From NCBI GenBank assembly GCA_000004985.1, contig GG738933.1: a DNA stretch of 64,000 bases; one strand, given 5' to 3'. Source of the DNA: Naegleria gruberi. Its lineage: Eukaryota. Made by a program: the position numbers and the translations under genes. The notes under the pieces were generated by a model. It worked only from the letters and a program-made list of their open reading frames with translations. It did no database searches and was not told the origin of the DNA. Positions 4,406 to 64,000 of this stretch are shown one piece after another; the first letter of the stretch is position 1, and every line of letters starts with the position of its first letter.

Positions 4406-4478
4406 GCCGACATAGCTCAGTTGGGAGAGCGTAAGACTGAAGATCTTAAGGTCCCTGGTTCGATCCCTGGTGTCGGCA
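4406..4478 (+). tRNA. tRNA-Phe (anticodon GAA)
   Basis: 73-nt cloverleaf. Acceptor GCCGACA/TGTCGGC plus discriminator A; D-arm GCTCAGTTGGGAGAGC; anticodon loop CTGAAGA; variable loop AGGTC; T-arm CCTGG-TTCGATC-CCTGG. One T/T mismatch in the T-stem relative to canonical Phe tRNAs. Confidence 0.8.
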
Positions 4479-17757: not shown

Positions 17758-20700
17758 CTATTTCTCACTTCGTTTGTAAATAGGTTTTGAATCAATTTGA
17801 TAAATAAGGAAGGCTCTTCCAATAAATTTGGAAATAGCAGCTTGGATCTCTGGCCATTTCTTTAAGACGTTATGGTTGGGGATCTTATCTATATATTCAT
17901 TCTCAAAAAAGGTTATGCCTGAGTGATGGAAATATAGCACATATGAGTATTGGAAAGGAATTTCTTGGATAGGGGAGAGTGAACACTCAGGTCTATCAAG
18001 TATTTCTGTTAATCTATTTTGACAATATCTTCTTTGATTGTCTAGTCTGGGGCATTCATGTATGTAATGTTCTAAATTTGAGGGACAATTACAATCTGAG
18101 CAGGTTGGATTCAATTCATCTTTCTTCTGTGTATATTTGATATGAGAATTTGAAGCGTTTCGCCAAATTTGATATTTGGTTTTAGGTGACAGTCGTGACT
18201 TGAGGTAGGCTACATTAATTGATGACCAGCTTTGGTTTGGAATAAAGTTGGGATTACTATCAATTGCTTCGTGCATCTCCTTAAGTTGGCGATTTACAGT
18301 CATTCTTTTGCAATCAAAGATCACAATATCGTTTTTCATAAGTAAATATTGGTTGGTTAGTAAGGATTTGATATCAAAGATCTTATCTCTTTCAGTTCCA
18401 TCTTTCGCAAGGCGATCTACTATTATATTTTCCTTATCTTCATGTCCTTTAACTTTGATTATATAAACTGAAATATTCTTTTCTTTTTGGATATTGAAAA
18501 ATTCAGTTTTGAAAGGGAGAAAGTTTCCTTTGTATTTTCTGGATAGGACATCTATTGCAACTTTGCTATCTGTGTGTATTCTAGCGGTTGTTCCATTTGG
18601 AAGTAGTTTCATTGCAGTGATAATTGCTCCTATTTCTGCAACATTGTTAGAGTATTCATTATTGATACGGAGTGAAAGGCTTTTACAAGGTGATAACCTT
18701 CCACCGGATTCATATATATTAATACCCATACCTGTTTTACCTGCAAGCTTGGATCCGTCTGTATGGATAATAAAGCATCTATTGGTTTCATTCACTTTCT
18801 TTAATCTGAATTTGGTATGATTCTTTTTGAAATCTAAATTATATTTCTGAAGTATTGACATCCATTGAATGAAAATGTTATTACTATTATCATTGGTATG
18901 ACTAATTCCAAATTTAAAAGCTTTCTGAACTAACTTGTTATTGGAATTTGCTATTAAGGAGAGAGTTCTTAAATTAAGTCTGTCTGTAAATTCTTCAATT
19001 GAGGGAACACCGAGTCCACCTTCTTCTAATGGTAGGTGGAAAAAAGCTGTTTTGGTGGTTCTGTCTAGTTTTAACTTTGTTCTGAGTACATTTCTAATGC
19101 AAATATCTATTCTTGATACCAGTGATGGAGGAATGACATTAAGTTTGGATAGATGTGTAAATAAACTAATCACTTTAGCATGAAGGACTTGTCTTAAATT
19201 ATGGGGTTGAAGTTTGAGTATTGGGAAATATTTCAGTGATTCATTGAATTTAGCTATCTTGCTTTCAATATCTTCTTTGACCAATTTATCTTCCCAAGGG
19301 TAGTGTCCGAGAACTCTAAGATTTTTCTGAATGGGAATTGGCACTTGTTTGATTTTTGGTATGATTTTGCTTTTTGTGGGAAGGAGAGTGGCAATTGACT
19401 TTTTTGCATTTAATTTGAAAAGCAATTGAGATAACCAGTCGTCGATGTTATCTAGTCTTCCATTATAATTTGTGAATCTGTCGCATACTATATTCATATC
19501 GTCAGCGAAACAACAAAGACCAATTTCGTTTGCATTCAATTCAGATGGTTCTATTGGTAGTTGCCATTGGTCTATTGCTTTGTCTATTATGAGTTGTGTA
19601 ATACAATCGTAAATAAGAGGTGCTAATGGGCAACCTTGAGGAATTCCTCGTGTTTTTGTGAAGTTATTTGATAGATGTTTGTCAATTTCTAATTGTAAAC
19701 TGTGATTGCTGTATGCATTAATTATAAAATCAGTTAGTGGTGTTGGGAATTTACAATGATTAAGGGCCATCCTAATAACCGGCATCTCCACTGCGTCGTA
19801 GGCACCTTCAATGTCAAGGTTGACTAATATAAATGTTCTTCGTCTAGTTTTCAAGGCCAGGGAGGAAAGTACTATTCCATGGTTCATTGTATTTCTATTA
19901 TTTATGAAGGCCTGTTGTCTCATATTAATCTGAGAGCTAGCCCATTCACATAATTTGTGGGCGATTAAATTAAAAAGGATTCTATAAAATATTGGTAGTA
20001 TTGTGATGGGTCTAATATCTCCTAATGTTTTAACTTCTCGCTTTGGAATCAGTTTAACCCAACCGTGTTTCCATTCTTGGGGGATATCTCCTTGTGTTAA
20101 ACATTTGTTAAACTCTTCAACTATTAAAGCTAATTTCTCTAATTTTAAGCCCTTGATGATATCTAATGAAATTTCGTCTTGTCCTGGTGTATTCGATTTC
20201 ATTCTTTTAATGGTTTCTTTTACATCTCTATATGAAATCCGACCTATATCTCTAGGACCTGAAGTGATAGTGGATGGACTTGGCATAAAGGTTGGTGTTT
20301 GATTGGAGGTTGTAAACTTTTTGGAAAAATAATCTAAAATTTCTTGTTCTCCAAATGGCAATTCTTTCCAGATAATTTCTTTAGAATGCAGTTTTCTATC
20401 AAATTGATACATGTGGGAGGCGTGACTATTGTTATATTTGTCAGTTAATTGTTCTTTGATTTCTTTACATGATTGGATGTGAGTCTCTTTAAGAATTGTT
20501 TGTAGTTCTGATATTTCATCAAGTCCAACATTTGGGTCTTCTAATTTACCCATAATCTTATTTTCTAATTTACGAATTTTACCTTTAAATATGGAGGAAA
20601 TAATGCTACCACCAAGTCTGTCAACTTTGGTTCCATATTTTGCAATGTTGTTTTGTATTTCTGCATTTAATTCTTGAAATGTATTGGCATTTGACGTATT

Positions 20701-21486
20701 TATCTCTTTGATCATTTCTTCTCTTTTCTTCTTACCAATATATGATCTCCAATTTAAATGTGATTTGAATTCAATATCAATGTAAAAAGGGATGTGATCA
20801 TTACTTGTGAGCGGTGGAAGGAGTTCTTCTTTGATAACCTTAATATCTTTAGACACGAAAATGTGGTCTAATCTTGAAGTGGTGATTCTATTCTGTTGTC
20901 TTCTAATGTAAGTCTTATTATTAGTCTTATATTCTGTTAGTTGGAGTAGATTAAATAGCCAGCACCATTCTTTATCTCTACCGTTTGAAGGATTAATGGT
21001 ATTGATATTAAGATCTCCATTAATTATGACATGTTCATCTCTACATGTCAGTACTGCATTTGTTATACTGTTCATGGCTTCAACATCATTTTCTTTATCA
21101 TCAACTCTTCCACTAAGATATGGAGTGAAAATATTAATTGGTATACCTTTGCTTTCGAATCGTGTCCATTGAAGAACACCTGGAATTAGATTGATATTAG
21201 TAATATTTCTCTTGTGAGGGTTGTTAAGGAAGTGCATAACAGCCGTCCCTTTTTTTCCTTTCGTTGTATTCATTAAGGAGTTAAATAATATATAGCCTGT
21301 TCCTGAATTTTTAACTTTATATTCTAGATCAGGAGTATTTAAATGAGTTTCGGTTAACGAAATCATGTGTATTTTATGATGAAGACACATTGATTTCACT
21401 TCTGGTGTAACCGATTTCTTACTAGCATGTTTATACAGGCCGTTTACATTGTAACACGCTAGTCGTAAATTACTATAATTACTCAT
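17758..21486 (-). CDS. retrotransposon ORF2: APE-type endonuclease, reverse transcriptase, RNase H and a C-terminal Cys/His motif, 1242 aa
   Basis: N-terminal LRLACYNVNG...ISLTETHL (EEP/APE). RT motifs including FADDMNIVCD. RNase H: IIHTDGSK...AEIGAI...HTDSK...KVKGHEDKENI..D.LAK. C-terminal CSDCNCPSNLEHYIHECP. Confidence 0.9.
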   Translation of the reverse strand: MSNYSNLRLACYNVNGLYKHASKKSVTPEVKSMCLHHKIHMISLTETHLNTPDLEYKVKNSGTGYILFNSLMNTTKGKKGTAVMHFLNNPHKRNITNINLIPGVLQWTRFESKGIPINIFTPYLSGRVDDKENDVEAMNSITNAVLTCRDEHVIINGDLNINTINPSNGRDKEWCWLFNLLQLTEYKTNNKTYIRRQQNRITTSRLDHIFVSKDIKVIKEELLPPLTSNDHIPFYIDIEFKSHLNWRSYIGKKKREEMIKEINTSNANTFQELNAEIQNNIAKYGTKVDRLGGSIISSIFKGKIRKLENKIMGKLEDPNVGLDEISELQTILKETHIQSCKEIKEQLTDKYNNSHASHMYQFDRKLHSKEIIWKELPFGEQEILDYFSKKFTTSNQTPTFMPSPSTITSGPRDIGRISYRDVKETIKRMKSNTPGQDEISLDIIKGLKLEKLALIVEEFNKCLTQGDIPQEWKHGWVKLIPKREVKTLGDIRPITILPIFYRILFNLIAHKLCEWASSQINMRQQAFINNRNTMNHGIVLSSLALKTRRRTFILVNLDIEGAYDAVEMPVIRMALNHCKFPTPLTDFIINAYSNHSLQLEIDKHLSNNFTKTRGIPQGCPLAPLIYDCITQLIIDKAIDQWQLPIEPSELNANEIGLCCFADDMNIVCDRFTNYNGRLDNIDDWLSQLLFKLNAKKSIATLLPTKSKIIPKIKQVPIPIQKNLRVLGHYPWEDKLVKEDIESKIAKFNESLKYFPILKLQPHNLRQVLHAKVISLFTHLSKLNVIPPSLVSRIDICIRNVLRTKLKLDRTTKTAFFHLPLEEGGLGVPSIEEFTDRLNLRTLSLIANSNNKLVQKAFKFGISHTNDNSNNIFIQWMSILQKYNLDFKKNHTKFRLKKVNETNRCFIIHTDGSKLAGKTGMGINIYESGGRLSPCKSLSLRINNEYSNNVAEIGAIITAMKLLPNGTTARIHTDSKVAIDVLSRKYKGNFLPFKTEFFNIQKEKNISVYIIKVKGHEDKENIIVDRLAKDGTERDKIFDIKSLLTNQYLLMKNDIVIFDCKRMTVNRQLKEMHEAIDSNPNFIPNQSWSSINVAYLKSRLSPKTKYQIWRNASNSHIKYTQKKDELNPTCSDCNCPSNLEHYIHECPRLDNQRRYCQNRLTEILDRPECSLSPIQEIPFQYSYVLYFHHSGITFFENEYIDKIPNHNVLKKWPEIQAAISKFIGRAFLIYQIDSKPIYKRSEK

Positions 21487-23123
21487 TTAGAAAGAGTACA
21501 AGATGATGAGCTTTTTGATTCTTCATCATCTTGCATAATAGAATTATTAGTACTATTATTTATATAATGGGAGATTTTGTCAATAAGTTCCATTGTATCA
21601 GCTAATGCTTTCTTAAAATCACGCAGTTCAGTTTCAATATTAGATAGTCTAGTTTCAAATAGATTGGTTGTTGTATTAATAGTAGGAGTAACTACAGAAT
21701 TAGTGGTTGAACTGGTATTATCGTTAGATTGTATAGGATTGATCATAGGATTAGTTACTTCCGGTAATTTAGAGTTAGTTAGAAATGGATATTGTTTTTG
21801 TTTTCTTTCAATTATTTCATCTAATTGTTTAATAGATGGTACGAAACAGTAACTGGTTCCATCAGTAATGTTTTGTTTGGTATTGAGAACAATTTTCTTG
21901 TCAATAAATAGATTCATTTCGTCAATATTTGAATGGACGACTTTACATAATTTAAAGGTAGTGGTATTGGATTTGTTTTTGGATTCAGTTATCATGCATT
22001 GGTTAGTATTGAAATCTTTTTTAATGCGTTCGTATACACGAGTAACACCATCGATGATTTCCTTGTTTGTAAAGGTAGGTGGAAATAAACATTCTGAAAC
22101 ATTAGTAGGAGTTTCATTACGCAATTGTTCAACAGATTTGTAATTAGTTAAATTAAGCTTCTTTCTAATAACTTCGCACACATCTTCGTTTTCGTATGAA
22201 ACTCTAATTATATATTTACCATGTGATTGGTTTGTATACATTTGGGAGATAAGTATAGTATTATCGTTATTAACTGAGTGTTTGATTAGTGATTTAATCA
22301 TATCAATGTGTTGTGAATATATGTGTGTAGAGTGAGTTAGAGCGTACAAGCTATGCTCGAATACAGCAGGTGATGGGAAGAATTTCAATATTAAATCATT
22401 GTGTACACTATCAAGCATATCTTTGCAAAGAATATAATTGTCATTACTATTGCAATGAAGATTAATGACATTACTAGTTTGGGGTCTTATTTTAATGGTG
22501 GCAAATTCCCCAAAGATGTCCATAATTTGTTCCATGAATTTGTTATTAATTCTTTCATAGCAGATAATATTAAGTGAATGTGTCAAATCGAATTTCTTAT
22601 TTTGCTTGACTGGTTTTTTACCATAGAATGAAATTGAGCGTTTCATTTTGATTTGTTTTGCTATAGTTTGTTTGATACTTGGTTGAGCTTTTATAGGGTG
22701 ATACTTCACCATATCCAAATATGGAGTAAGTTGTAGTTTGGTATTTTGCTCAATAGGGTTCTTACTACATTCATATTTTGGTTTAATATTACTAGTAATG
22801 GAATGAATTTGTTGATTTCTATTTTGGGGAGTTGACTTAATATTTTGGATTTCTGAAGTAGGTTTTTTAAATGAATCAGTAGAAATGTTAGTGGTAGAAG
22901 TATCTTCTTGATTAATATTATCAACTTTAACCTTTACATCTTTGTCTTGTACAAACTCGGATTTAAACATTATTTTGTCGTAAATCTTTTGCATAGTTTC
23001 CATGTATTTTTGAAGACGAATATTTTCAATCCGATATGAATCGACTGCTTGTTCTAACACAAGAATCCTGTTAGTCAGCTGCAGACAATTTATTGGATCA
23101 GGAGGGCGGTCATGTAAAGGCAT
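21483..23123 (-). CDS. retrotransposon ORF1 protein, 546 aa, N-terminal coiled-coil-like region
   Basis: ATG at 23123. Its TGA stop overlaps the ORF2 ATG (ATGA). No CCHC knuckle recognised. Confidence 0.75.
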   Translation of the reverse strand: MPLHDRPPDPINCLQLTNRILVLEQAVDSYRIENIRLQKYMETMQKIYDKIMFKSEFVQDKDVKVKVDNINQEDTSTTNISTDSFKKPTSEIQNIKSTPQNRNQQIHSITSNIKPKYECSKNPIEQNTKLQLTPYLDMVKYHPIKAQPSIKQTIAKQIKMKRSISFYGKKPVKQNKKFDLTHSLNIICYERINNKFMEQIMDIFGEFATIKIRPQTSNVINLHCNSNDNYILCKDMLDSVHNDLILKFFPSPAVFEHSLYALTHSTHIYSQHIDMIKSLIKHSVNNDNTILISQMYTNQSHGKYIIRVSYENEDVCEVIRKKLNLTNYKSVEQLRNETPTNVSECLFPPTFTNKEIIDGVTRVYERIKKDFNTNQCMITESKNKSNTTTFKLCKVVHSNIDEMNLFIDKKIVLNTKQNITDGTSYCFVPSIKQLDEIIERKQKQYPFLTNSKLPEVTNPMINPIQSNDNTSSTTNSVVTPTINTTTNLFETRLSNIETELRDFKKALADTMELIDKISHYINNSTNNSIMQDDEESKSSSSCTLSK

Positions 23124-43853: not shown

Positions 43854-45401
43854 ATGGGCAACAAACTATCATCACCACTCTCCTATTTTTCTAACGGCAC
43901 AAATAATAATGATAGTAATGATAACAATGATGATAACGATGATGAATATTCATCAAGTTCCGATCATCATAAACGTCGTCAAAAAATAGAAGCAAAAGGT
44001 GGTTATGTATCGGTTCTCTCATATCATGATCAATTATTATTGGATCATTCACAAGTGTTGCAATGTAAAGCATTATTTCAGGCATTTGGTGAACATCAAT
44101 TTGAAATTCAGGGAAATATCAATGCAAATATTTCAAAATATGTGCAGGGAAGTGAATATATTGTGAAAATTGCAAGTGGTGGGCATCATACTGTATTATT
44201 GACGAGTTTGGGAAGGATTTTATCATTTGGAAAGAATTTGGATGGTCAAGTTGGATGGAAAACTGAGCTCAATCATTCGAATGATATTGGAGAAGCAAAA
44301 CCACTTTACAAATATACAAATGAGTTTGCTGTGGATGTGTGTTGTGGAAATAATCATACTGTCATTTTGACTAATCTTGGAAATTTAATGGGATGTGGTT
44401 GGAATGCATATGGTCAACTTGCAGAAGGTCCACACAGTTCTCAATCATTGGATTATATCAAATTTAAAGCAAAAATTAGAATGGTTAGAGCTGGTAATAA
44501 TGCTACTTGTATTTTAGATGCGGATGGAAGACTTTATTTGAGTGGAACTTTGCACATGACAGAATGTAGACTTGGAGAATTTACTTTAATGGATGATTTC
44601 TCTGCCAAGCTGTCAAAACATGAAAAAATTGTGGATTTTCAAGTTGGTGGCAGACAGGTAGTGGCTGTCTCATCAAAAAATAAGGTTTTCATCTTGGGAG
44701 AGGATTATATTGACAGAGGAGGTTCCAATTATAAGAGATTTACCAATGTGACAAGCAAGTTAGGATTTGATCCAATAGAATTGAAAAGCTTTTCTGTTGG
44801 TCTCTATCATTGTCTGTTCCTCACACATTCTGGAAGAATGTATGCAACTGGCTATAATGGATATGGTCAACTTGGAACTGGTGATTTTCAAGATTTGAAT
44901 ACACCAAAAGAAATTACCAAATTTTACAAAGTTGACCCAGAAAGTATCAAGAAAGGCATCACTGCAGAACAAGATAAGATTGAATATTATGAATGTGCAG
45001 TTGCAAAAGATCCTGAATTCTACTCTGATGTTCACTTTATTGAGAAGAATGAATTTATAACAAGTATTCTCGCTGGATCATGTCATAGTTTGTTTGTGAG
45101 TAATTTGGGAACTATTTACGGTTGTGGTTATAATGCTTATGGTCAATTGGTGCTTCCACTCGAAGTGGTGGATGAATATGACGATGATGCCGTTCCAGAA
45201 CCAAAGGAAAAGAATCCAGATGTGAAACAGTTATTAATCGATACCACCCGTTCCAGTAATTTCATACTCTTTTCAAACTCTGCTGCAAATATTACTATTT
45301 TGGCTGAGAAACAAGCTATTAATCTTTGGATGTACAAGTGCTTGAAAAACAGAGCTATTGGAGGGGAATTGGGCGATGTTGTCTTTTCTTTTGATCAATA
45401 A
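43854..45401 (+). CDS. RCC1-repeat (regulator of chromosome condensation-like) protein, 515 aa
   Basis: repeated blades GGHHTVLLTSLGRILSFGKNLDGQVG, CGNNHTVILTNLGNLMGCGWNAYGQL, LYHCLFLTHSGRMYATGYNGYGQLGTG, GSCHSLFVSNLGTIYGCGYNAYGQL. aaaaaaaaATG start. Confidence 0.8.
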   Translation: MGNKLSSPLSYFSNGTNNNDSNDNNDDNDDEYSSSSDHHKRRQKIEAKGGYVSVLSYHDQLLLDHSQVLQCKALFQAFGEHQFEIQGNINANISKYVQGSEYIVKIASGGHHTVLLTSLGRILSFGKNLDGQVGWKTELNHSNDIGEAKPLYKYTNEFAVDVCCGNNHTVILTNLGNLMGCGWNAYGQLAEGPHSSQSLDYIKFKAKIRMVRAGNNATCILDADGRLYLSGTLHMTECRLGEFTLMDDFSAKLSKHEKIVDFQVGGRQVVAVSSKNKVFILGEDYIDRGGSNYKRFTNVTSKLGFDPIELKSFSVGLYHCLFLTHSGRMYATGYNGYGQLGTGDFQDLNTPKEITKFYKVDPESIKKGITAEQDKIEYYECAVAKDPEFYSDVHFIEKNEFITSILAGSCHSLFVSNLGTIYGCGYNAYGQLVLPLEVVDEYDDDAVPEPKEKNPDVKQLLIDTTRSSNFILFSNSAANITILAEKQAINLWMYKCLKNRAIGGELGDVVFSFDQ

Positions 45402-45430: not shown

Positions 45431-48189
45431 TCATTGTTGGTTTCCTTTATTCAATCTTCTCATAATCTTAACCAACAGTTTGGGTGATACATGCTCAAAA
45501 GCTTCGTCTGGGTAGGTTTGCAAAATGATTGTGGCATATTTGCTGGCAAACTCTACCAAATGTTTTCCAAATAAAGTTACAAACTCGTCATTTTGATTTT
45601 CCTCTCTAGAATAACAGCTTGCCATCAATATAAAGCTCTCCACTGTGATATAACCCTCAATAGAATTAATAATATGATTTGATAATTCTGGAAATCCAAA
45701 TATCCGCGACAAGTTCAGCAAGGGAAGTAAAAGATGAACTGGAGGATCTTCCCACAACCCATAACAAAATTTGAGTAAAATTGTGCAAATCTCCATCAAG
45801 GTATTTGGATCTATAGTTTTCCCATCAATACCATTAAGTTTTGCAATTTCTGGCTGTATGCAGTGGATCAAATTGAAATTTGTAGCGTGTATCATGGCTT
45901 TCAATTCAGAAAGTAATGAACAACGTGAACAAATAACTGTCTTGTGTAGTCTCATATGTTTTTCCTCGGTTAAGAATATATTAATGTCAGTATTTACAGC
46001 ATTGTAGTGCAATTTTTGAAGAGCAATACGAACGTTTGGCTCACTCACAGGATTCAATATTGGAATGTTGAGCTTGAATTTTGATAATTGATCGGCAGAG
46101 AGGAAGAATTTGAACTTGTTCAGCCTTCCAGCAAAGCAAATATGATTTTCACCATAGCATCTAACAATATCAAAACAATACTTTAGAGCATAGTGAAGCA
46201 ATGCGTCGTCAGCTATTTGGACTTTCTCGTACAGGCATTCTATAGTTGTACTAATGTTAAGTGGTGAAAGCTTGTCAATTAGAATATTTACAAGACAACT
46301 CTTGAGCTGAATAAATGTATCTCTGAAAAAGGATAATACATAGATGATTTCCACAATCTCCACAGTATCCAGAGTCATTATTGGTTTGGAATAGAGTAGA
46401 ATATCTATCAAATTCTGCACATGTTTTAAATTGGATTCCTTATCATCTTTGACTAATTTTTCTAGAATTGATACAAAATCTGGTGCAATAAAGGGAAGAA
46501 TTGGGCCAAATGCTATACACTGCAATCTATCGTTAAAGTCCTGACTGTATTTGTGCAGAGGTATCGATGAATATCTACTAGAAGGAGAGTAGTATACCAT
46601 TGGATTATTATCTTTGCATACTACACGATTAACATAAAAATTACCACTAGTGTCCACAACCTCAAACACTGATCTCTTCTTTTCTCCACAACAAACAACT
46701 TCATGAAGACATGTTATAGCAAATGTACAATTTTTACCACTCGAAAAATCAATAAAAGGAATTCTCGAAGGAACCTTTTCAAAAGCTTCTCTATTGTTAA
46801 AATCTCCCAAACCTAGCTGTCCACACGAATTATCGCCACATACCCACAATTCTCCCATACTATTGAGAATGCATGTATTTGTCGTGCAGTCGATTTTTTG
46901 AATCGTGCCATACGTCCAGTTAATAACATTGGCCCCTGTTGTCATTGTTTGTTTACATGCAAGCTGTCCCAAATTGTTATTACCTCCCAAGACCAATTTT
47001 GTAGCTCCTTCTGCTGTTGTAATATGAACTACATAATGTTCCAATCCTAGATGAAAGTTTTCCACTCGATCATTCTTGGCTATATTTTCCAAGACCATAA
47101 ATTCATTAGTTACACTAGTTTTCAAATAAATATGATTATTTTCAGTTAGAAAGGCAACATGGCCGTATCCAACAAATATTCTCTTTGGAATAATGTTTGG
47201 AGTTGGTAGGTCTTTCTTGGGCACTTTGGTAAATTTTCCAACACTGAAAGAAGCCCAAATTTCATCCTCTGTCGACAGGTAGTACCTAGTAACACCTCTT
47301 CCCTCTGCAATAATTTTCGGAGTAAATGGAAGAGTAATCTTTTTCAAGTTTTTCAAATCATTGTTCAATTCTTCCGATGAAATTGGAGTGCACTCAAAGA
47401 GCTCATTCTTAATTGTTTGAAGAAATATATAGGAAGAACTGTAAATTTCCTTAATTTCCTCTCCTTTTAAGATTTGTTTCAGGTTGACACTTCTATTAAT
47501 GGTTGGTCTACTTAGCCCTTTCAGTGTTTGTTTGGAACAACACATGATTGTGAAAGGACGTTCCAAATCATCAACTACCAATTGATTACTATTTGTATTT
47601 ACACCATTCGGATCCGAATCATCAGCTGTAGAGAAGGACGGAATAACAACATTCTGTCTTCCTTGTGAATTTTCTGATTTCATTTGGGAAGAACTGGACA
47701 AGATTGGACTCGAATTTGCTTCCACACCTCTCCTCGAAGAACTCCCTAGCGAAGGAGAACCATTCATCAGTACAGGACTGCTCACTGTAGTTGTTGCTGC
47801 TGATGTTTCCTTCATCTTCTTTGATGGTGTGCTGCTCTCCAATCGTTCTTGATGATTATTACTATTATTATCGGATGATGATGAAGGCAAGGATCTCTTT
47901 CTTGTATTCTCATGATTATTAAAAGAAGGAATAACAACAGGGGGAGTGTTATTAACTACAGCAGAAGTAGACGGAAGAATAGAAGAGGCTGATGATGAAG
48001 CCTTCTTCTTCTTTTCCTTTTGATGATCAATAACACCAATAATTTCAACACCCTGCGAGGATGAACAAATCTCATCGACATCATAATCGTCCAAATTAAT
48101 ATCTAACTCATCTTCTTCATCTTCCAAATCAATTGTTGCTATAGGAGTTTGTGATTTTGTATTATTTAGTGATGATGAATGTGGTAGCA
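45431..48189 (-). CDS. RCC1-like repeat and BTB/POZ domain protein (RCBTB/IBtk-like architecture), about 919 aa from ATG 48189
   Basis: S-rich N-terminus. RCC1-like LGGNNNLGQLACK and VCGDNSCGQLGLGD. C-terminal BTB-like segments, e.g. the region containing HATNFNLIHCIQPEIAKL and the LLKFCYGLWE block. Confidence 0.7.
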
Positions 48190-48499
48190 TCTCTTTATCC
48201 TCCAACCTATTTAGTTTAATAGTAGCAGTACAACAACACAATAACAAGCCTGGAAATTACATGAGCGGCAAGGAGAACTAGCCGTTGCTTATTTTTGTTT
48301 GTTTTTTTATTAAAATTTTTTTAAATTCAAAAAAAATATCAGTACAATTGTCTTCCACTTCTTCGTCTCTTGATTGTCAACATGTATTAGCTTACTAGAA
48401 GAAGTTTGCAGATTGGGATGTACTTTTGACATGATTCTCTTGTTGGAATTTTACCTTCTCAATTTTGATGTTTGTTGTTATCATCAAGATGGCAAATAA

Positions 48500-56812: not shown

Positions 56813-57895
56813 CTAATATAGAAAGTTGGGATTGAAGACGCCAGGTAAAAGAGATGAACAGTACATGACCGGAGTTATGTCATGATCTCTTTCGAATAGA
56901 TGATCTTTCCATAGAGAGTGAATATTCTCAACAATTCGTCTAGTTTCTCCATCTTTTTCATTTTCTGGAATAGTTTGCAATCCAATCGAAACACCAAAGT
57001 CTCTGAAACCTAATCTTCTTCTAGTACTCTTAATCGTGCTTTCGAATATCTCTTCAATATTAGAAATGGCAACTTTTCTCATATGATTCGCCCAATCTTC
57101 ATCAGGAAACCAACTGGTCAACCAAAGAGTTTCTCCCAAATCCAGAGGATCCGAACTCTGATACATTAAATACTTTCCCATCACCATTCCCTTCATTTCT
57201 TCAATTTCTCTATTCAAAACACTTCCATCCACATTCTTTCCTTCTTTTAATTGCTGGTTGACCAATTGTAAAAGTCTATAAGTAACATAACCATCATACG
57301 GATCCAAATTTCCTTCAGATCTCACAACTGGTCTCGAGCCATCAATGGAAATCTTCCAGAACATCCTCAATCCACGTGAAGAACTATGATTGATAAACTT
57401 GTTATGCATGGATTGAGCCATTTCAATTGCCCATTCATTGTATTTCACATCTCGAGTGATTAGTGACGTTCTGTTGAGGGCAAACATCCATTTGGTGAGA
57501 TAGTGAAAGTATTGACCATCGCCATCTTCGTCATCTTCATCGGCTTCCTTGCCAATTCGTAAACCTCCCAACAGGGGATGTTCAGCATTGGATTTTCCTT
57601 TCGAATAATTTAGTAGATTAGTTATTAGAAACTGCATGTACTTACCCAAATAATGTTGCAATGAACGATCCTTTCCAAGAACTTGATGCACCTCTTCAAT
57701 AAGTGCCTTAGCTTGTTCCAAATACGAATCTTGACCACTTTCCACATGCAACGAAAGGAAATTACAAACTGCAAACGCATCAGTCCACAAGTATCGAGTT
57801 TGTGTTTCAGATTTCAATGGTTTGGGTTTGTAGTGTGCTCCACTGAAATTGCCATACACTTGTTCCATCACTTCAATGCATTTATCTTTTAACAT
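56813..57895 (-). CDS. hypothetical protein, 360 aa, possibly an (alpha/alpha)-barrel glycosidase-like fold
   Basis: ATG start; clean ORF; W/Y-rich helical repeats (RYLWTDAFAV...); no confident family assignment. Confidence 0.5.
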   Translation of the reverse strand: MLKDKCIEVMEQVYGNFSGAHYKPKPLKSETQTRYLWTDAFAVCNFLSLHVESGQDSYLEQAKALIEEVHQVLGKDRSLQHYLGKYMQFLITNLLNYSKGKSNAEHPLLGGLRIGKEADEDDEDGDGQYFHYLTKWMFALNRTSLITRDVKYNEWAIEMAQSMHNKFINHSSSRGLRMFWKISIDGSRPVVRSEGNLDPYDGYVTYRLLQLVNQQLKEGKNVDGSVLNREIEEMKGMVMGKYLMYQSSDPLDLGETLWLTSWFPDEDWANHMRKVAISNIEEIFESTIKSTRRRLGFRDFGVSIGLQTIPENEKDGETRRIVENIHSLWKDHLFERDHDITPVMYCSSLLPGVFNPNFLY

Positions 57896-58254: not shown

Positions 58255-59439
58255 ATGCTCAAAATCTACCACCACGATCACGCCAACGATAGATCATCAA
58301 CCAATCACCAAGAACCCTTTCATATTGTAAATACGAACACTTGCAAAACCATTAACATTCCCAATTTTGAGAGAATTAAAAAAGTTGTAATCAATCAGAC
58401 AAGTGTACATGTCCTATCGGAGAGTGGTCAGGTTTATATTTTTAAAGATGGTTTTGATAGTAGTAGTAGCAGTAGTAACATAACAATTCAAGTTCCTTAT
58501 CTTCTCGACACTACAACAAATGGAAAATTATTGATTGAAGATGTTTCGACATTTTCGGAGGGATCAACACTTTATTTGGTTCGTGATGAGATGAATAATA
58601 CATTTCTCTATGGAAGTGGCAGTACGGCCTATGATTGTTTTGGAGGTAATCGTCAGTGTATGAATGAGGATGGTACGGAGAAATTTACTCTCCTTTACAC
58701 TCCTCCGACCGTAAATGGATACAGACATCAAATTACACATATTGCATCATGTTATTCCTTTACAATAATCGTTTTGGATTACTGTGATATTAGAATTTCA
58801 GGTCAGGATTGGGTGAATTCTGTTCACACGGTAATGGGTTGGCATGTAAGCCAGTTTTATTGTGAAAAGAAAATTAAGAAAATTGAATGTGGAAGCTTTC
58901 AATTTTTTGTAATATTTGAAGATGATACTGTAATGTTTTGTGGAGATAATGGAAGTAATCAGATGCCACATACTGAAGGTACCGCACATTTTTCTGTGGA
59001 TTATGAAATGAAAATTTCTGAAGCTTTTGGAGGATACGATTGCTCGGTAGTGAGATTTGCAAACACTACTCCAACTTATGAGAATTACATGTTATATGGA
59101 AGTGCAATGCTGGAATATAAGAATTTGAAACAGTTTTTGAGCTGTTATCCAAAATTTTCTGAATCCAATTCAGACAATGCAAAGATTAGATATATTAAGG
59201 ATATATTCTTTATTGAATTCAATGGCTTATTTTATGCGATAAGCAATAGTCATAATATGAGATTTGTGGTGGATGCTTCAAAAGAATTTGATGGAATTCC
59301 TGGAAACAATTATCAAATTACTGCACATTCAAGTACAGTTGTTTTTTACAAAACATTTTCAGCAGTCATTTATCCCAAGTTAGCTACTTATCTTAGAAAT
59401 CAATCAATACTCACTGATTGCTATTTTCAGTTTGAATGA
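58255..59439 (+). CDS. hypothetical protein (about 394 aa from ATG 58255; the open frame extends back to 58120)
   Basis: a13-ATG start context at 58255; no domain recognised. Confidence 0.45.
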   Translation: MLKIYHHDHANDRSSTNHQEPFHIVNTNTCKTINIPNFERIKKVVINQTSVHVLSESGQVYIFKDGFDSSSSSSNITIQVPYLLDTTTNGKLLIEDVSTFSEGSTLYLVRDEMNNTFLYGSGSTAYDCFGGNRQCMNEDGTEKFTLLYTPPTVNGYRHQITHIASCYSFTIIVLDYCDIRISGQDWVNSVHTVMGWHVSQFYCEKKIKKIECGSFQFFVIFEDDTVMFCGDNGSNQMPHTEGTAHFSVDYEMKISEAFGGYDCSVVRFANTTPTYENYMLYGSAMLEYKNLKQFLSCYPKFSESNSDNAKIRYIKDIFFIEFNGLFYAISNSHNMRFVVDASKEFDGIPGNNYQITAHSSTVVFYKTFSAVIYPKLATYLRNQSILTDCYFQFE

Positions 59440-59705
59440 TTTGTTATGTGAATATTGCAATCATGTCTTTAATTATGAATACTAATGAAACACTCTATTT
59501 CATGTGGAAAAACCCTTTCTTCTTGCAGCATCCAATACCTGTGTAATGGTTTCCACTTTAAGTACATATTTAATTCAATTTTATTAATTAAGTATTTAAT
59601 TGGCAGTTTATGTTAATTGCCATGTAGAATTGTTCAACTCAGCTTTCCAATCATCAGGAGTGAATTGGCTTCCAATTAAACATTGCAATAATTCACCAAA
59701 AAAAA

Positions 59706-60175
59706 TGCAAGCCCTCATTCCTTTCGATAGATCTGCAAAGCAATTTACCAGCGAATTTCCTTCCCAGTTTTCAAGCATTCTCGCTCCAGAGACCTTCGAC
59801 TCACACTTGGAACAAATTAATAAGTGTGCCATAAAACATGTTGGGCCAATTACAATTCAAACAATATCGGTTTCCACCCTCGTGACAATTAATTCTCTCG
59901 CTTTGATGGCTGCTGTTAGTGGTTTTTCTACCTTGAAGAAGTATGATACTTCACAACCAATTTTGGTCGGTTCTCTATTGGCAATAGGTATTTCCTTGCT
60001 TTTAATTGCTCACTCTATTGCTCTCATTTTAATGTCAATTAAATATAAACAAGAATTGAGAAGTGTTTTACAGAGATTATCTCAAGAGTCTGATGTTACT
60101 TATGTATTAGAGAATTCATGGTTTTCCCAAAAGATTAGAATGGAAGGAAATCAATATTCAGCTCATGAAGTTTAG
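59706..60175 (+). CDS. hypothetical small membrane protein (about 156 aa from ATG 59706; the tool start at 59600 is TTG)
   Basis: aaaaaaaATG context. Two hydrophobic segments: TISVSTLVTINSLALMAAVSGF and ILVGSLLAIGISLLLIAHSIALILMSI. Confidence 0.4.
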
Positions 60176-60247: not shown

Positions 60248-63181
60248 TTACTTAATTTGGTAGAGTCTCCAATCGATTAAAGTACTTGTGTTGATTGAAT
60301 GCCAGATCCACTCAGAAGAAACTACATTGACTTGTGGATTTTCTGAAACAAGTTTGGCAATCTCTGGTGTAATTCTCGATGATGATGTGATAATATGAGT
60401 GATATCATCACTAAATGATGATTCTACAATTCCATCAAATGCAATAATATATCTAGTGTGCATCTTGAGAGCAGGAACATCCTTATGAATGTACATGACC
60501 ATATCAGTGAATAAATCACACAATGAAGTAAGTTCTGGTGGTGCAGTGAGAGAGGAGCTTTCTGCTTTCACTATTGTTGGTTTAACAAGTTGAGCCTTCT
60601 TGGTAGGATAATGATATGGTAATGTATCAACCAAATATCCTTTGGTGGCACATTCAAAGACCCAATATTTGGTAACAATGAGAGATCCAAGATTGAAACA
60701 ATGTTTAAAATCTTCAGTTTCTGATTCACAAATGAGGTGAGTATTTGCATTTCCAATAATGTTCCAATTATTTGTTACACTTCCTCCATTGTTGGTGATA
60801 AACTTGCTAATTGCCTCCTTCTCAGAATTGCTGTAACCAGAAATTAAAGCAACAACATTTCTGAAAAAAGTGTTATTGCTGGAACTATCTTGCTCTTCAA
60901 CTTTGATTGATGTTTGTGAAGATGATTTGGTCATCTTATTTGTTGATGTTGTTGGAGCATTATCATCAGATGTATCCATCTTATGAGATGAATCTGAGGC
61001 AGCAGCCGAGTTATCAGTTGTAGGTCTATTAGCCAACTTATTTTTTGATTCATTAACTCTATCCTTATCATCTCTATCCTTTGTATAGATGAAAACAGCA
61101 AATCCCTTGTTTGAAAGATTTTCCTTCAAAAGTTGTTCAACTCTATTCCAATCCAAACCAGAAATGGCGTGATGCAATCTATATAAATGGAATGTACCAA
61201 TCTTTTTTTGATTCATGTAGGTAGCACATTTCTTTAAACATTCATCCAAAGCATGATAGTCAACTTTTGGTGCAGATCCTTTCTTGACAAATTGAAGACA
61301 TACCATATTACATAAATGATTTGGTAATGCTACAACAATTTGAGCATCACCAATTATGTTCATATCATCAGTGTAAGCCTTCTTAATATCTTCACCATAC
61401 AAGAGTTCAATATTTCCCATTGATCCTTTATCTGACCATCTACTAGAGTCATCTACACAATGTGAAATTAGTTTTTCTTCCTTATTCATTGGCATTTTCA
61501 TAAAATCACCATAAATGTAATAGATTTGTTCTGGAGTAGAAGAGTTATTAATAGTATCAATATCAGATAATTTGATACCAATAGTTGACTTTTTAGCTTT
61601 CTTTGCTTTTGGATCATCATCATCATCAGAATTATCTGAGGATTTTGATTTTTTCTTATCATTAGGCTTTTTAGCTGACTTTTTATCATCCTCATCATCT
61701 TCATCATCTGAGGAATTTATCTTCTTCTTTCTTGAATTTTTCTTTTTCTTTGAGCTTGAATCTGATTCATCATCTTCATCATCAGATTTTGACTTTTTAG
61801 CTCTGGAACGTTTCTTTTTATCTTTTACATCTACACTTTCATCAGAATCATCTCCTGCATCTCCATCTCCAAAAATAGGTACTAAACCTTTTCTATTACT
61901 TTCATTTTTCAATTTGATAATTTCTTGATAATTGGTATGATCTAAAACATCCTTATCATCTCTAATTTTTGTAACTCTAGGGAATCTGACAGAAATTGGT
62001 CTGTCTTTTCTTGAGGAAACTGAAAATTCAGCTCCTTGAATTTCCCAAACAACACTCTTTTTTGGATCTTTAACAATAAAATCAGGTACAAGAGCATTAG
62101 TATGAATATCAATATCATCTGGAACCAATGAAGGATCCTTACTGATTCTTTTCATATTTGATTTCAATTCTTCATTCAATGTTTCAATAGTTTGATCATC
62201 GTGTCCGTTACCACATTTACAAATAATTCTCCACTTTCCTAATTTCTTGTCAAAAGAACCCATCATGAATACAGACATTAAACCACCTTTACTACCTGTA
62301 CCAAGATAAGCTCCTAGAACAACAAGATCTACACTATCTGCCATACCTTTCAAGTAATCTTTTTTCATTTTAAGCCAATGTCTAGCATTAGGTTCATATG
62401 GAGAACATAAATCTTTTAACTAATATGTAAAATTGTTAATAAAAAAATTAATAATAAATTTGAAAATAATACATACCACTAAACCTTCTTCACCCTTCTT
62501 AATCATTGCACTCATTTCAGCAGAAACAATAGCTTCTCTTGTTTGTTTTGAACCCTTTACAACCAAATATTCACCTAACATTACTCTATGTTTGATTGGA
62601 TTTACAATTTTAGTCATTAATGCCTTTCTCTTATATAAAGGAACTGAAAGGAGTGATTTACCATTATAATACAATATATCAAATAAAAATATAGTTGTTA
62701 CAGCATCTTTGTGATCTTGTCTAACATTTTTACCAAGTGTACCAAATGGAAGAATCTTATTTGTCTTTGTATCCATCATTAAAATTTCACCATCTAAAAT
62801 TACAGATTCAACCTTTTCCTTAATAGCTTTAGAAATATACTTTTTTACAGATTTGATCTTATACTCTTGAACATCTTTCAAATTTCTACTAAAATATTTG
62901 ATTTCATCATTTTTTCTATCATAGTGAATTTGAATTCTTTCACCATCATATTTAAGTTCAGAATAAAAACCATTTGGACAACGAGCAATAACATCATCAT
63001 AAGTCTTACTTGGACGAGCAAGCATTGGTTTGACAGGATGGAAAAGTTTCATCTTGGTTGATATTTTAATCTTCTTAGGAGCCTTCTTATTCTTCTTTTT
63101 CTTTTTAGAATCATCCTCTGATTCTTCATCTACAAGTTCATCATCCCATGATGAAGATGTCACCAAAACAGATAAATCCAA
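60248..63181 (-). CDS. ATP-dependent DNA ligase with two C-terminal BRCT domains. Exons ..63181..62477 and 62419..60248 with a 57-nt GTATGT..TATTAG intron. 5' end unresolved; the coding region appears to begin near the adenylation domain
   Basis: motif I ELKYDGERIQIH. Motif III VILDGEIL. FLFDILYYNG. Motif V EEGLV|LK across the intron. Motif VI HWLKMKKDYL. OB-fold region ISVRFPRV. D/E/S/K-rich linker. BRCT1 FFRNVVALISGYS...LICES and BRCT2 RYIIAFDGIV...WIWHSI. Confidence 0.85.
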
Positions 63182-63474
63182 TGTAGGTTGTATTTAAATC
63201 AATTAATTAACTTTTCAAAAGGATGTTCGACATCCAAACAATTTGATTGTGGAAGTATACAAACATGATGATCCTAATGTTTTCAAATTATTGGAAGAAA
63301 ATACGAAGAGAGAGAACAAGCCTTCCTCTACAATTAAAATTGACTGGGATAAATTCAAGTTTGTTCCAAATAATAATTCAATTCCCAAAAATCAAAACAA
63401 GATGAAGAGAAATATTAAATAAATCAAATAATATTAATTCACTGCACTATTGATTTACTCAACCCAACTAAAAA

Positions 63475-64000
63475 ATGACCAGTAAGCAATCCTCCAATCC
63501 GTTGATGAAAGAATACAAGCTCTTTGTAAATGCCAAGGCTAAGAACTTGCTTATAGAAGGTGTCTTGTATTCACTGGATCCATCAGTTCCGATACAGGTT
63601 ACAAAAGTAAGTTTAAAGAGTTTGAAAGTATTAATATGTTGAAGGTTGGTTCCAAGAAGAAGTCTTCTCCAATTGAAAAGAAGGAGGGAAAGTCATCAAG
63701 AGAGAATAGATCAGGTAAGGCATCCTCAAGCAGGAGAAATCAAAAAGAAGAAGAGGAATTATCCATTGAGGAGGAAGATGATGTATTCTCTGAGGAAGAT
63801 GAGATCATTTCAAGCAAATTAGGTAAAGTTTCCAAGAAGAAGCCCTCTTCAGGTAGTAAGGAGGTAAGTTTCATTTTTGAGGGAGCCTCAATTATTGTTT
63901 TTCATTTTTGTGATAAGAGATTGAATGGTATAGGTAAGGTGTCTGAGAAGAAGCCCTCTTCAGGTAGTAAGGAGGTAAGTTTTATTTTTGAGGGAGCCTC
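63475..64000 (+). CDS. 5' part of a K/S/E-rich protein gene running off the window. Exon 1 is 63475..63606, followed by short exons that include tandemly repeated 42-nt mini-exons
   Basis: ATG at 63475 (MTSKQSSNPLMKEYKLFVNAKAKNLLIEGVLYSLDPSVPIQVTK). Donor AAAA|GTAAGT at 63607. Repeated exon GKVS(K/E)KKPSSGSKE followed by a GTAAGTTT..GTATAG intron. Confidence 0.4.
63822..64000 (+). repeat. tandem repeat with a roughly 111-bp unit (42-nt mini-exon plus about 70-nt intron); at least 1.6 copies, truncated by the window end
   Basis: ggtaaagtttccaagaagaagccctcttcaggtagtaaggaggtaagtttcatttttgagggagcctc... recurs at 63933 as ggtaaggtgtctgagaagaagccctcttcaggtagtaaggaggtaagttttatttttgagggagcctc. Confidence 0.7.

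Follow-up and report, generated by a model that had tools for sequence, protein, structure and literature searches.

Gene structure and domain architecture

In the window, by which we mean the whole 64-kb stretch of Naegleria gruberi DNA analysed here, positions 60248–63181 of the minus strand hold a ligase gene of two exons with complete catalytic motifs, an OB fold and two C-terminal BRCT domains (Table 1). Splicing of a 57-nt intron joins the open reading frames 62420–63181 and 60248–62368 into a single frame of 958 codons, the earliest in-frame ATG of which (63052) gives a product of 915 aa. This product is the annotated protein XP_002669061 (100% identity and coverage), which carries the database name 'ATP dependent DNA ligase'. 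The translation contains the full set of catalytic motifs (KYDGER, ILDGE, FLFDILYYNG, EGLVLK, WLKMKKDYL and RFPRVTKIRDDK), and Pfam recognizes both the NTase domain (DNA_ligase_A_M, PF01068, E=1.4e-51) and the OB-fold domain (DNA_ligase_A_C, PF04679, E=4e-11), the latter housing RFPRVTKIRDDK as motif VI. The domain matches bear out the complete catalytic core, OB fold and paired BRCTs that a first-pass annotation had read from the DNA.

Table 1. Features of the ligase locus and of its duplicated neighbours, in window coordinates
Feature	Position	Strand	Remarks
351-aa neighbour, NAEGRDRAFT_54480	56813..57868	-	Outermost gene on the left with a demonstrated twin, EFC36978/D2W1U5 (326,815-bp scaffold)
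394-aa RCC1-like neighbour, NAEGRDRAFT_76052	58255..59439	+	389/394 identical to NAEGRDRAFT_75381, 326,815-bp scaffold
156-aa neighbour, NAEGRDRAFT_76053	59705..60175	+	Identical protein on the 326,815-bp scaffold (EFC36290 and EFC37027)
Exon 2	60248..62419	-	NTase end (motif V), OB fold, linker, macrodomain, BRCT, LIG3-type BRCT, stop codon
Second BRCT, DNA ligase 3 type	60287..60526	-	Pfam PF16759 LIG3_BRCT, E=2e-27; PDB matches are LIG3 and XRCC1 BRCTs
First BRCT	60650..60874	-	Pfam PF00533, E=2e-12; residues 751-825 of the 958-codon frame
Macrodomain, ALC1/CHD1L-like	61040..61567	-	phmmer, AlphaFold2, Foldseek; between OB fold and BRCTs
K/D/E/S-rich linker	about 61568-61897	-	Within exon 2
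OB fold	about 61952-62287	-	Within exon 2
Spliceosomal intron, GTATGT...TAG, 57 nt	62420..62476	-	Position matches an intron of the Willaertia orthologue
Exon 1 of the XP_002669061 model	62477..63052	-	Starts at Met 'MKLFHPVKPMLA'; bulk of the adenylation (NTase) domain with motif I (KYDGER)
Acidic/basic linker remnant, ELVDEESEDDSKKKKKNKKAPKKIKISTK	63053..63139	-	Frame kept, but upstream of the first usable ATG
Breakpoint	63140..63142	-	Homology to XP_002669721 (aa 302 onward) and the Willaertia orthologue begins, mid-exon, in the acidic linker
Ligase-unrelated sequence	63143..63474	.	Breakpoint to ATG of the plus-strand gene; occupies the expected DBD exon site

A macrodomain, which had escaped the first-pass annotation, separates the OB fold from the BRCTs. 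Searched against the PDB with phmmer, this region matched CHD1L (E=1e-9), 2fg1 (E=6e-8) and 5e3b (E=1e-5); its AlphaFold2 model has a pLDDT of 91.5, and the best Foldseek matches of that model, with probability 1.00, are 2fg1, 5e3b, ALC1 (7epu) and TARG1. The region is conserved among heterolobosean and dictyostelid Lig3 proteins, and it is a putative ADP-ribose/PAR-binding module.

The initial reading had likened the architecture to ligase IV and advised a comparison with Lig1, Lig3 and Lig4. LIG3 proved by far the closest, not LIG4: human LIG3 (PDB 3l2p) is the best solved-structure match, spanning NTase and OB domains at E=3e-97, compared with 3e-46 for human LIG1 and 9e-38 for LIG4, and the last BRCT is of the LIG3_BRCT family. 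Overall sequence similarity and this terminal BRCT identify the gene as an orthologue of DNA ligase III. The PARP-like zinc finger (PF00645), a trait of metazoan LIG3 enzymes, has no match in the product. It is equally unlisted for full-length heterolobosean and dictyostelid orthologues, so the zinc finger does not define the family outside animals.

Search for the DNA-binding domain

Pfam found no match to DNA_ligase_A_N (PF04675), the DNA-binding domain (DBD), in the product. Across the 64-kb window, tblastn with three full-length relatives (P0002, P0003 and P0004) returned no match for their first ~300 aa, and a hidden Markov model built on the N-termini of 110 Lig3 proteins reached a best E value of 1 over the six frames. 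The window has no DBD coding potential. The first-pass annotation had found no DBD-encoding exon and had proposed a search of 63182..63474 and beyond; that search yielded nothing in any frame. The sole long weak tblastn alignment (E<=10), at 21591–21989, belongs to ORF1 of a non-LTR retrotransposon and was rejected as a DBD. By sequence, then, the locus is derived from a LIG3 gene, yet it codes for an incomplete member that has no DBD.

Among the best 120 homologues, at least 200 aa precede the NTase domain in 110 and 109–194 aa in six more. Only three others have no sequence before the NTase domain; they lie on contigs of 2–5 kb and are probably fragments. The close relatives on long contigs within this set all have a DBD, and a naturally DBD-less lineage of minimal ligases is ruled out on that ground.

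The upstream region and the breakpoint

Ahead of the NTase domain the frame reads ...SSSWDDELVDEESEDDSKKKKKNKKAPKK, the acidic and basic, K-rich tail of the earlier description, and two further details of that description stand: an in-frame stop lies upstream (TAA at 63194–63196), and the divergent gene is close by, its plus-strand ATG at 63475 leaving a gap of 294 bp (earlier put at ~290 bp) and lying ~330 bp from the breakpoint. The first ATG of the frame after this TAA is the one at 63052. The tblastn alignments of P0003, P0002 and P0004 share a start at 63142, where P0003 reads ...DIEEKPEELVDEESEDD and the window ...SSSWDDELVDEESEDD.

Could a 5' exon have been overlooked, as initially considered? 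No AG acceptor occurs from 63181 to 63133. In the orthologue of Willaertia, aa 2–518, comprising DBD, linker and NTase domain, lie within one exon; on a Naegleria-like metagenome contig the ligase gene is intronless, and the same three parts are uninterrupted. Given that homology ends mid-exon, that an acceptor is lacking and that relatives encode DBD through NTase domain in a single exon, a missed 5' exon is very unlikely.

Around the breakpoint, the boundaries of the block described below show acidic-codon low complexity as their only repeats; neither a transposon end nor a long repeat was seen there. The junction sequence and a nearby conserved 23-mer had 0 matches in JGI metagenome contigs. 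A plus-strand open reading frame at 63148–63422, with a possible 38-nt intron, starts right by the breakpoint and had a coding-like look; we considered it as a second truncated gene and dropped it because neither a homologue nor a Pfam match turned up.

A full-length twin in the same genome

Another N. gruberi scaffold, of 326,815 bp, encodes XP_002669721 (P0003; D2W1U2, NAEGRDRAFT_75379), which is ~99% identical to the product of the locus over 683 aa and aligns by tblastn with window positions 63142 to 61040. This protein has a normal DNA_ligase_A_N domain (E=1e-31), and its domains follow in the order DBD, acidic linker, NTase, OB and macrodomain; at aa 984 the model departs from ligase into kinase and GST fragments, which have been wrongly fused to it in the annotation. 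Residues 1 to ~301 of this twin, which comprise the DBD and some of the acidic linker, have no counterpart at the locus, and nor does the native start codon. Within the 683 aa, every difference between the two lies in the low-complexity linker: five substitutions, among them G/A at residue 421, D/E at 451, P/A at 487 and N/D at 527 of the 958-codon frame, and an indel of one codon at residue 500. These differences are divided evenly between ancestral and derived states, and the NTase and OB domains of the two proteins are identical.

The Willaertia magna orthologue (ABK040_005715) is 74% identical in the NTase domain, OB fold, linker and macrodomain, has an intron at the same position (its introns measure 47–60 nt, the one here 57 nt) and ends in the same tail of macrodomain, BRCT and LIG3-type BRCT. 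The full architecture of DBD, NTase, OB, macrodomain, BRCT and LIG3-type BRCT is shown by Willaertia and by neither N. gruberi model. Synteny with Willaertia was uninformative as a test, since the ligase is the only gene in common.

The truncated gene lies at the end of a probable duplicated block

The three genes downstream of the ligase recur in the same order on the 326,815-bp scaffold with 99–100% identity at the protein level. Apart from a middle part that was modelled differently, NAEGRDRAFT_54480 and its twin differ by three substitutions; a scaffold of 7,259 bp carries a partial third copy, 100% identical. The UniProt accessions of the 326,815-bp scaffold are consecutive (D2W1U2, the ligase, then D2W1U3, D2W1U4 and D2W1U5), with EFC36977 next to EFC36978 on one strand and EFC37027 next to EFC37028 on the opposite strand. 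Given this colinear duplication, a duplicated block of 6.3 kb or more would end at the locus, with the 5' part of the ligase cut off.

Genes at 41–51.6 kb, to the left of the block, have no twins. By sequence comparison the block would run from 63140 leftward to about 51.6–56.8 kb, roughly 6.3–11.5 kb, an extent that, like the comparison of the copies, rests on proteins, the second copy having been compared at the protein level. The window contains no N anywhere, and therefore both block boundaries fall in contiguous sequence. To the right of the breakpoint the window continues for 858 bp; a displaced copy of the DBD region may lie further right on the 99,287-bp scaffold.

Origin of the DBD-less locus

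We interpret the locus as a 5'-truncated copy of N. gruberi ligase III at the end of a recent DNA-level duplication, and put the probability of this interpretation at roughly 0.6. The parent would be the full-length NAEGRDRAFT_75379 on the 326,815-bp scaffold. The duplication boundary would have landed within the acidic linker and, as the duplication stops mid-gene, the front end of the ligase would have been lost, its native promoter and start codon along with some 300 N-terminal codons for the DBD. The remainder would be an intact frame for NTase, OB, macrodomain, BRCT and LIG3-type BRCT, translatable solely from the internal Met at 63052. Copying went via DNA and not RNA because the intron is retained, and a processed (retro-)pseudogene is ruled out by that 57-nt intron together with the three co-duplicated neighbours.

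The same near-identity would be seen if N. gruberi had just one Lig3 locus whose two alleles diverge by roughly 1%, the second having been falsely joined into the 99-kb scaffold of a draft Sanger assembly; the truncated gene would then be absent from the organism. Protein divergence of about 1% lies in the allele-like range, N. gruberi NEG-M is reportedly heterozygous according to a statement in PMC9928731 that cites Fritz-Laylin 2010, and near-identical sequence sits on three scaffolds (99 kb, 326 kb and 7.3 kb). The regional assembly is untidy, with a chimeric twin model made of ligase, kinase and GST parts and with a third fragment, which makes an assembly or haplotype artefact possible. 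The window is gap-free, however, and the block is flanked on both sides by unique, gene-bearing sequence, so that an artefact needs two independent false joins within contigs, at a junction without a long repeat able to mislead an overlap assembler. We regard an artefact as unlikely, though with appreciable weight, and favour a real segmental duplication; we infer that the junction is present in the organism and not merely in the assembly.

Two other explanations read the gene differently. In the first, a DBD-less ligase III paralogue has evolved and is functional: the 420 bp upstream that it shares with its neighbour would drive its expression, and it would serve as a minimal ligase brought in by PAR, as a regulator that competes for PAR and BRCT partners, or together with a DBD acting in trans. 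An intact frame of 2.9 kb carries the complete set of catalytic motifs, translation could begin cleanly at the conserved Met 63052, which stands 8 residues from the NTase domain, NT and OB ligases can be active alone (review PMC7470946), and the human NTase-OBD keeps weak activity. In a young copy ~99% identical to its parent, however, an intact frame is expected by chance and is uninformative on selection; all differences from the twin fall in the disordered linker, every orthologue from a long contig has the DBD, and the copy has acquired no DNA-binding element to compensate. We therefore find this paralogue quite improbable, and it is slightly more doubtful still that transcription from the promoter region shared with the plus-strand neighbour yields a 915-aa DBD-less protein with a biological role, be it as a weak ligase drawn in by PAR, as a competitor or regulator of full-length Lig3, or as a catalytic module paired with a separate DBD. 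If it did, the protein would be a natural experiment in doing without the eukaryotic ligase DBD. The gene might instead be complete but interrupted, its DBD exon or exons lying beyond 64000 behind a long intron or an insertion carrying the gene at 63475. The scaffold is 99 kb, the window stops soon after the breakpoint, and a DBD-only model elsewhere on the scaffold would have escaped our protein search, whose query was DBD-less. This reading is, however, very improbable: no AG acceptor is present at or just upstream of the breakpoint, which orthologue comparison places mid-exon, the introns of the gene here and in Willaertia are short, and an opposite-strand gene begins 330 bp off.

The first-pass proposal of a DBD-less ligase is right in that the locus literally has no DBD; as an evolved architecture it does not hold, given a ~99% identical DBD-bearing gene elsewhere, and nothing in the sequences points that way.

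Expected consequences for a proposed truncated duplicate

Returning to the truncated duplicate, the product, if made, would be expected to self-adenylate, to bind ADP-ribose or PAR through the macrodomain and partners through the BRCTs, and, by analogy with the isolated human LigIII NTase-OBD, which by itself gives only weak nick joining (PMC4538836), to seal nicks weakly. The frame of the truncated copy is free of frameshifts and premature stops, and nothing in it is a positive sign of decay. The copy is most likely a young, redundant or non-functional partial duplicate, too recent for decay, and would be functionally inert.

We found no papers naming these accession numbers. The significance is mainly for annotation: XP_002669061 should not count as evidence of a DBD-less ligase III in Naegleria. 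The understanding of ligase mechanism is unchanged.

Comparison with known ligases

The Chlorella virus PBCV-1 ligase and bacterial Lig C and Lig E have NT and OB as their only catalytic modules and no DBD (PMC7470946, PMC5746248). Each belongs to an ancient, compact lineage that compensates with DNA-contact elements of its own, whereas the locus holds a Lig3 core with no sign of adaptation. DNA ligase IV has two C-terminal BRCTs, as here, but similarity to it is far weaker than to LIG3, and the terminal BRCT of the LIG3 type and the macrodomain set the locus apart. With human DNA ligase III it shares the C-terminal BRCT of the LIG3/XRCC1-interacting type; unlike the human enzyme it has neither DBD nor PARP-like zinc finger, and it has a macrodomain and an additional BRCT.

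A parallel in domain order comes from Dictyostelium, whose DNA ligase III orthologue with a macrodomain has already been described (Gunn et al. 2016, PMC5087659). There, likewise, the macrodomain stands between catalytic core and BRCTs, and dictyostelid matches align across the whole product (100% query coverage); unlike this locus, the dictyostelid proteins keep the DBD (Pfam PF04675). With this locus, Heterolobosea join the amoebozoan cases of Lig3 with a macrodomain in place of the animal zinc finger, an alternation that fits lineage-specific modules for ADP-ribose-dependent recruitment.

A ligase III gene without its DNA-binding domain

The ligase locus comprises two open frames on the minus strand (60248-63181), joined by a short intron. 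The 915-aa product predicted from the first in-frame ATG exactly matches XP_002669061/EFC36317/D2W3T0, on a 99,287-bp scaffold. All ligase motifs listed in the first-pass annotation are found in the joined frame, and Pfam recovers adenylation, OB and two BRCT domains (see table). The best match among solved structures is human DNA ligase III, across the NTase and OB domains (E=3e-97), with weaker matches to LIG1 (~3e-46) and LIG4 (~9e-38). Given this ranking and the terminal LIG3_BRCT, the gene is a ligase III orthologue; the ligase IV-like architecture originally proposed was not borne out.

Residues ~530-685 of the 958-codon frame, overlooked in that annotation, resemble the macrodomains of CHD1L/ALC1 and bacterial macrodomain proteins in a solved-structure search. 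A structure model of this region (window 61040-61567), with an alignment of 14 orthologues as input, reached a pLDDT of 91.5, and its top Foldseek matches were macrodomains (2fg1, 5e3b, ALC1 7epu, TARG1 and DarG).

The DNA-binding domain (DBD) at the N-terminus had been described as missing, correctly: a Pfam search of the 958-codon frame did not find DNA_ligase_A_N, and the stretch of frame ahead of the NTase domain has nothing beyond ...SSSWDDELVDEESEDDSKKKKKNKKAPKKIKISTK, with an in-frame TAA further upstream. At least 200 residues precede the NTase domain in 110 of the 120 best homologues, and 109-194 in 6 more. Besides this locus, nothing precedes it in only three; these come from 2-5 kb contigs and probably represent fragments. 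The Willaertia magna orthologue (1209 aa) is 74% identical over the whole query, carries DBD, NTase, OB and BRCT domains in its Pfam record and is 76% identical to the window in the macrodomain region. XP_002669721 (NAEGRDRAFT_75379), the paralogue or twin, is encoded on a second N. gruberi scaffold, of 326,815 bp. It aligns with 71% of the query at 99% identity and has a clear DNA_ligase_A_N domain within its first 331 residues (E=1e-31).

No protein of N. fowleri or N. lovaniensis is among the 120 best Lig3 matches; N. lovaniensis does occur among those of the neighbouring 351-aa gene. Lig3 may be absent from both species; this would agree with the patchy occurrence of the enzyme among eukaryotes.

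The truncation coincides with the edge of a probable duplicated block

When the full-length proteins of N. gruberi, Willaertia and the metagenome were compared with the window by tblastn, each query gave one strong match, all three starting at 63142, and the first ~300 residues of these relatives matched nowhere in the window. DBD-like coding potential was likewise missing from all frames of the window when searched with an HMM of 110 Lig3 N-terminal regions (best E 1). The paralogue has ...DIEEKPEELVDEESEDD at the boundary, the window ...SSSWDDELVDEESEDD; homology therefore begins partway through the acidic linker, at ~63140. Because a single Willaertia exon encodes DBD, linker and the greater part of the NTase domain (residues 2-518), and the entire Lig3 gene of a Naegleria-like metagenome contig is intronless, this breakpoint lies mid-exon. 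There is also no AG usable as an acceptor between 63181 and 63133. The missed 5' exon entertained in the first-pass annotation is thus very unlikely.

Genes downstream of the ligase likewise have twins on the 326-kb scaffold, as found by exact-sequence look-ups, and by accession order their relative arrangement there is the same as in the window (UniProt D2W1U2, U3, U4, U5; GenBank EFC36977 and EFC36978 adjacent on one strand, EFC37027 and EFC37028 on the other). No twin was found for window genes further left (41381, 43854, 48500, 51179). Since twins extend to 56.8 kb and none was found at 51.6 kb or to its left, the shared block would run leftward from 63140 for 6.3-11.5 kb, its left boundary falling somewhere from about 51.6 to 56.8 kb. 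Retention of the intron means that DNA, not mRNA, was the source of the copy. We infer that the DBD truncation is the edge of this block.

Five substitutions and one indel separate the ligase from its twin over their 683-aa overlap. Every one of them falls within the K/D/E/S linker, and comparison with Willaertia and others places the ancestral state partly in one copy and partly in the other. Past residue ~695 of the window frame, the window copy keeps the ancestral sequence whereas the twin's model does not. XP_002669721 leaves the ligase after 'DRVNESKN'; residues 985-1260 then hold protein-kinase C-lobe and GST C-terminal fragments, and the BRCTs are omitted. The twin's model is evidently chimeric, perhaps across a gap, or else the locus is rearranged; the current annotation of N. 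gruberi thus lacks a complete Lig3 model.

Other features of the window

An apparently intact non-LTR (LINE-like) retrotransposon occupies 17758-23123 on the minus strand, its ORFs overlapping by 4 nt. Three RCC1-like repeat protein genes lie within 16 kb; the one of 515 aa gives a strong RCC1-like-domain match (E=3e-50). The 351-aa gene represents a family that is widely conserved but has no Pfam domain. Its homologues, at 40-60% identity, number in the hundreds across protists, algae, rotifers and ferns, and a few carry the name alpha-1,2-mannosidase or DUF1793. Over a middle segment the window model disagrees with the twin's, which suggests that an intron was missed in one of the two. A third partial copy (XP_002668309), 100% identical over window ~56813-57469, runs off the end of a 7,259-bp scaffold, indicating assembly redundancy, or a further copy, in the region.

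A protein-like small ORF (63148-63422, plus strand) starts exactly at the breakpoint and reads MMKMSPKQINPM, a possible 38-nt GTAGGT...AG intron, then DVRHPNNLIVEVYKHDDPNVFKLLEEN...; a search of 5.8 billion proteins gave no homologue and Pfam no match, and the ORF is possibly spurious. The gene beyond it has K/S/E-rich exons after its start and a repeated 111-bp unit of exon end and intron start (63820-63889 and 63931-64000, 93% identity).

Table. Features of the window
Feature	Position	Strand	Remarks
tRNA-Phe (GAA) gene	4406-4478	plus	
Retrotransposon ORF2, 1242 aa	17758-21486	minus	endonuclease, reverse transcriptase, RNase H domains
Retrotransposon ORF1, 546 aa	21483-23123	minus	
RCC1-like gene	43854-45401	plus	
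RCC1-like gene	45431-48247	minus	
351-aa gene	56813-57868	minus	three substitutions relative to twin outside differently modelled stretch
394-aa RCC1-like gene	58255-59439	plus	389/394 identical to twin
156-aa gene	59705-60175		identical to twin on 326-kb scaffold
Ligase intron, GTATGT...TAG, 57 nt	62420-62476	minus	joins both frames into one of 958 codons
ATP-dependent ligase adenylation domain		minus	Pfam E=1.4e-51
Ligase OB domain		minus	Pfam E=4e-11
BRCT		minus	Pfam E=2e-12
DNA-ligase-3-type BRCT (LIG3_BRCT)		minus	Pfam E=2e-27
First in-frame ATG of ligase	63052	minus	
In-frame TAA	63194-63196	minus	upstream of ligase frame
Next gene	from 63475, past window end at 64000	plus	begins MTSKQSSNPLMKEYKLFVNAKAKNLLIEGV...

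Status of the truncated copy

We favour a real truncated duplicate at the ligase locus (probability about 0.63): the window contains no N, unique, gene-bearing sequence flanks the block on both sides, and a search for a long repeat at the junction found none. Metagenome scans for the junction sequence gave no match. That the block is instead an artefact seems to us unlikely; N. gruberi is reported to be heterozygous (PMC9928731), and the identical third fragment on a 7.3-kb scaffold and the disordered model of the twin point the same way, but an artefact would require two independent false joins within contigs.

If translated from Met 63052, the duplicate would yield a ligase III NTase-OBD module followed by a macrodomain and two BRCTs. 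Human ligase III NTase-OBD alone binds DNA and joins nicks weakly (PMC4538836), and natural NT+OB ligases show that a DBD is not strictly necessary (PMC7470946). The truncated copy bears no sign of compensation or selection, and at ~99% identity to its parent an intact 2.9-kb frame is as expected of a young neutral copy. That it is expressed and used is highly improbable; it is most likely a partial duplicate of recent origin, redundant or inert, and the working Lig3 of N. gruberi would be the gene on the 326-kb scaffold. The suggestion of a DBD-less ligase holds for the locus but not as a new architecture, the gene being most likely a truncated copy of a DBD-bearing Lig3 gene.

The gene was already annotated, and truncated duplicates are ordinary. 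The macrodomain-Lig3 architecture is also known, since a Dictyostelium Lig3 orthologue with a macrodomain was reported by Gunn et al. 2016 (PMC5087659).
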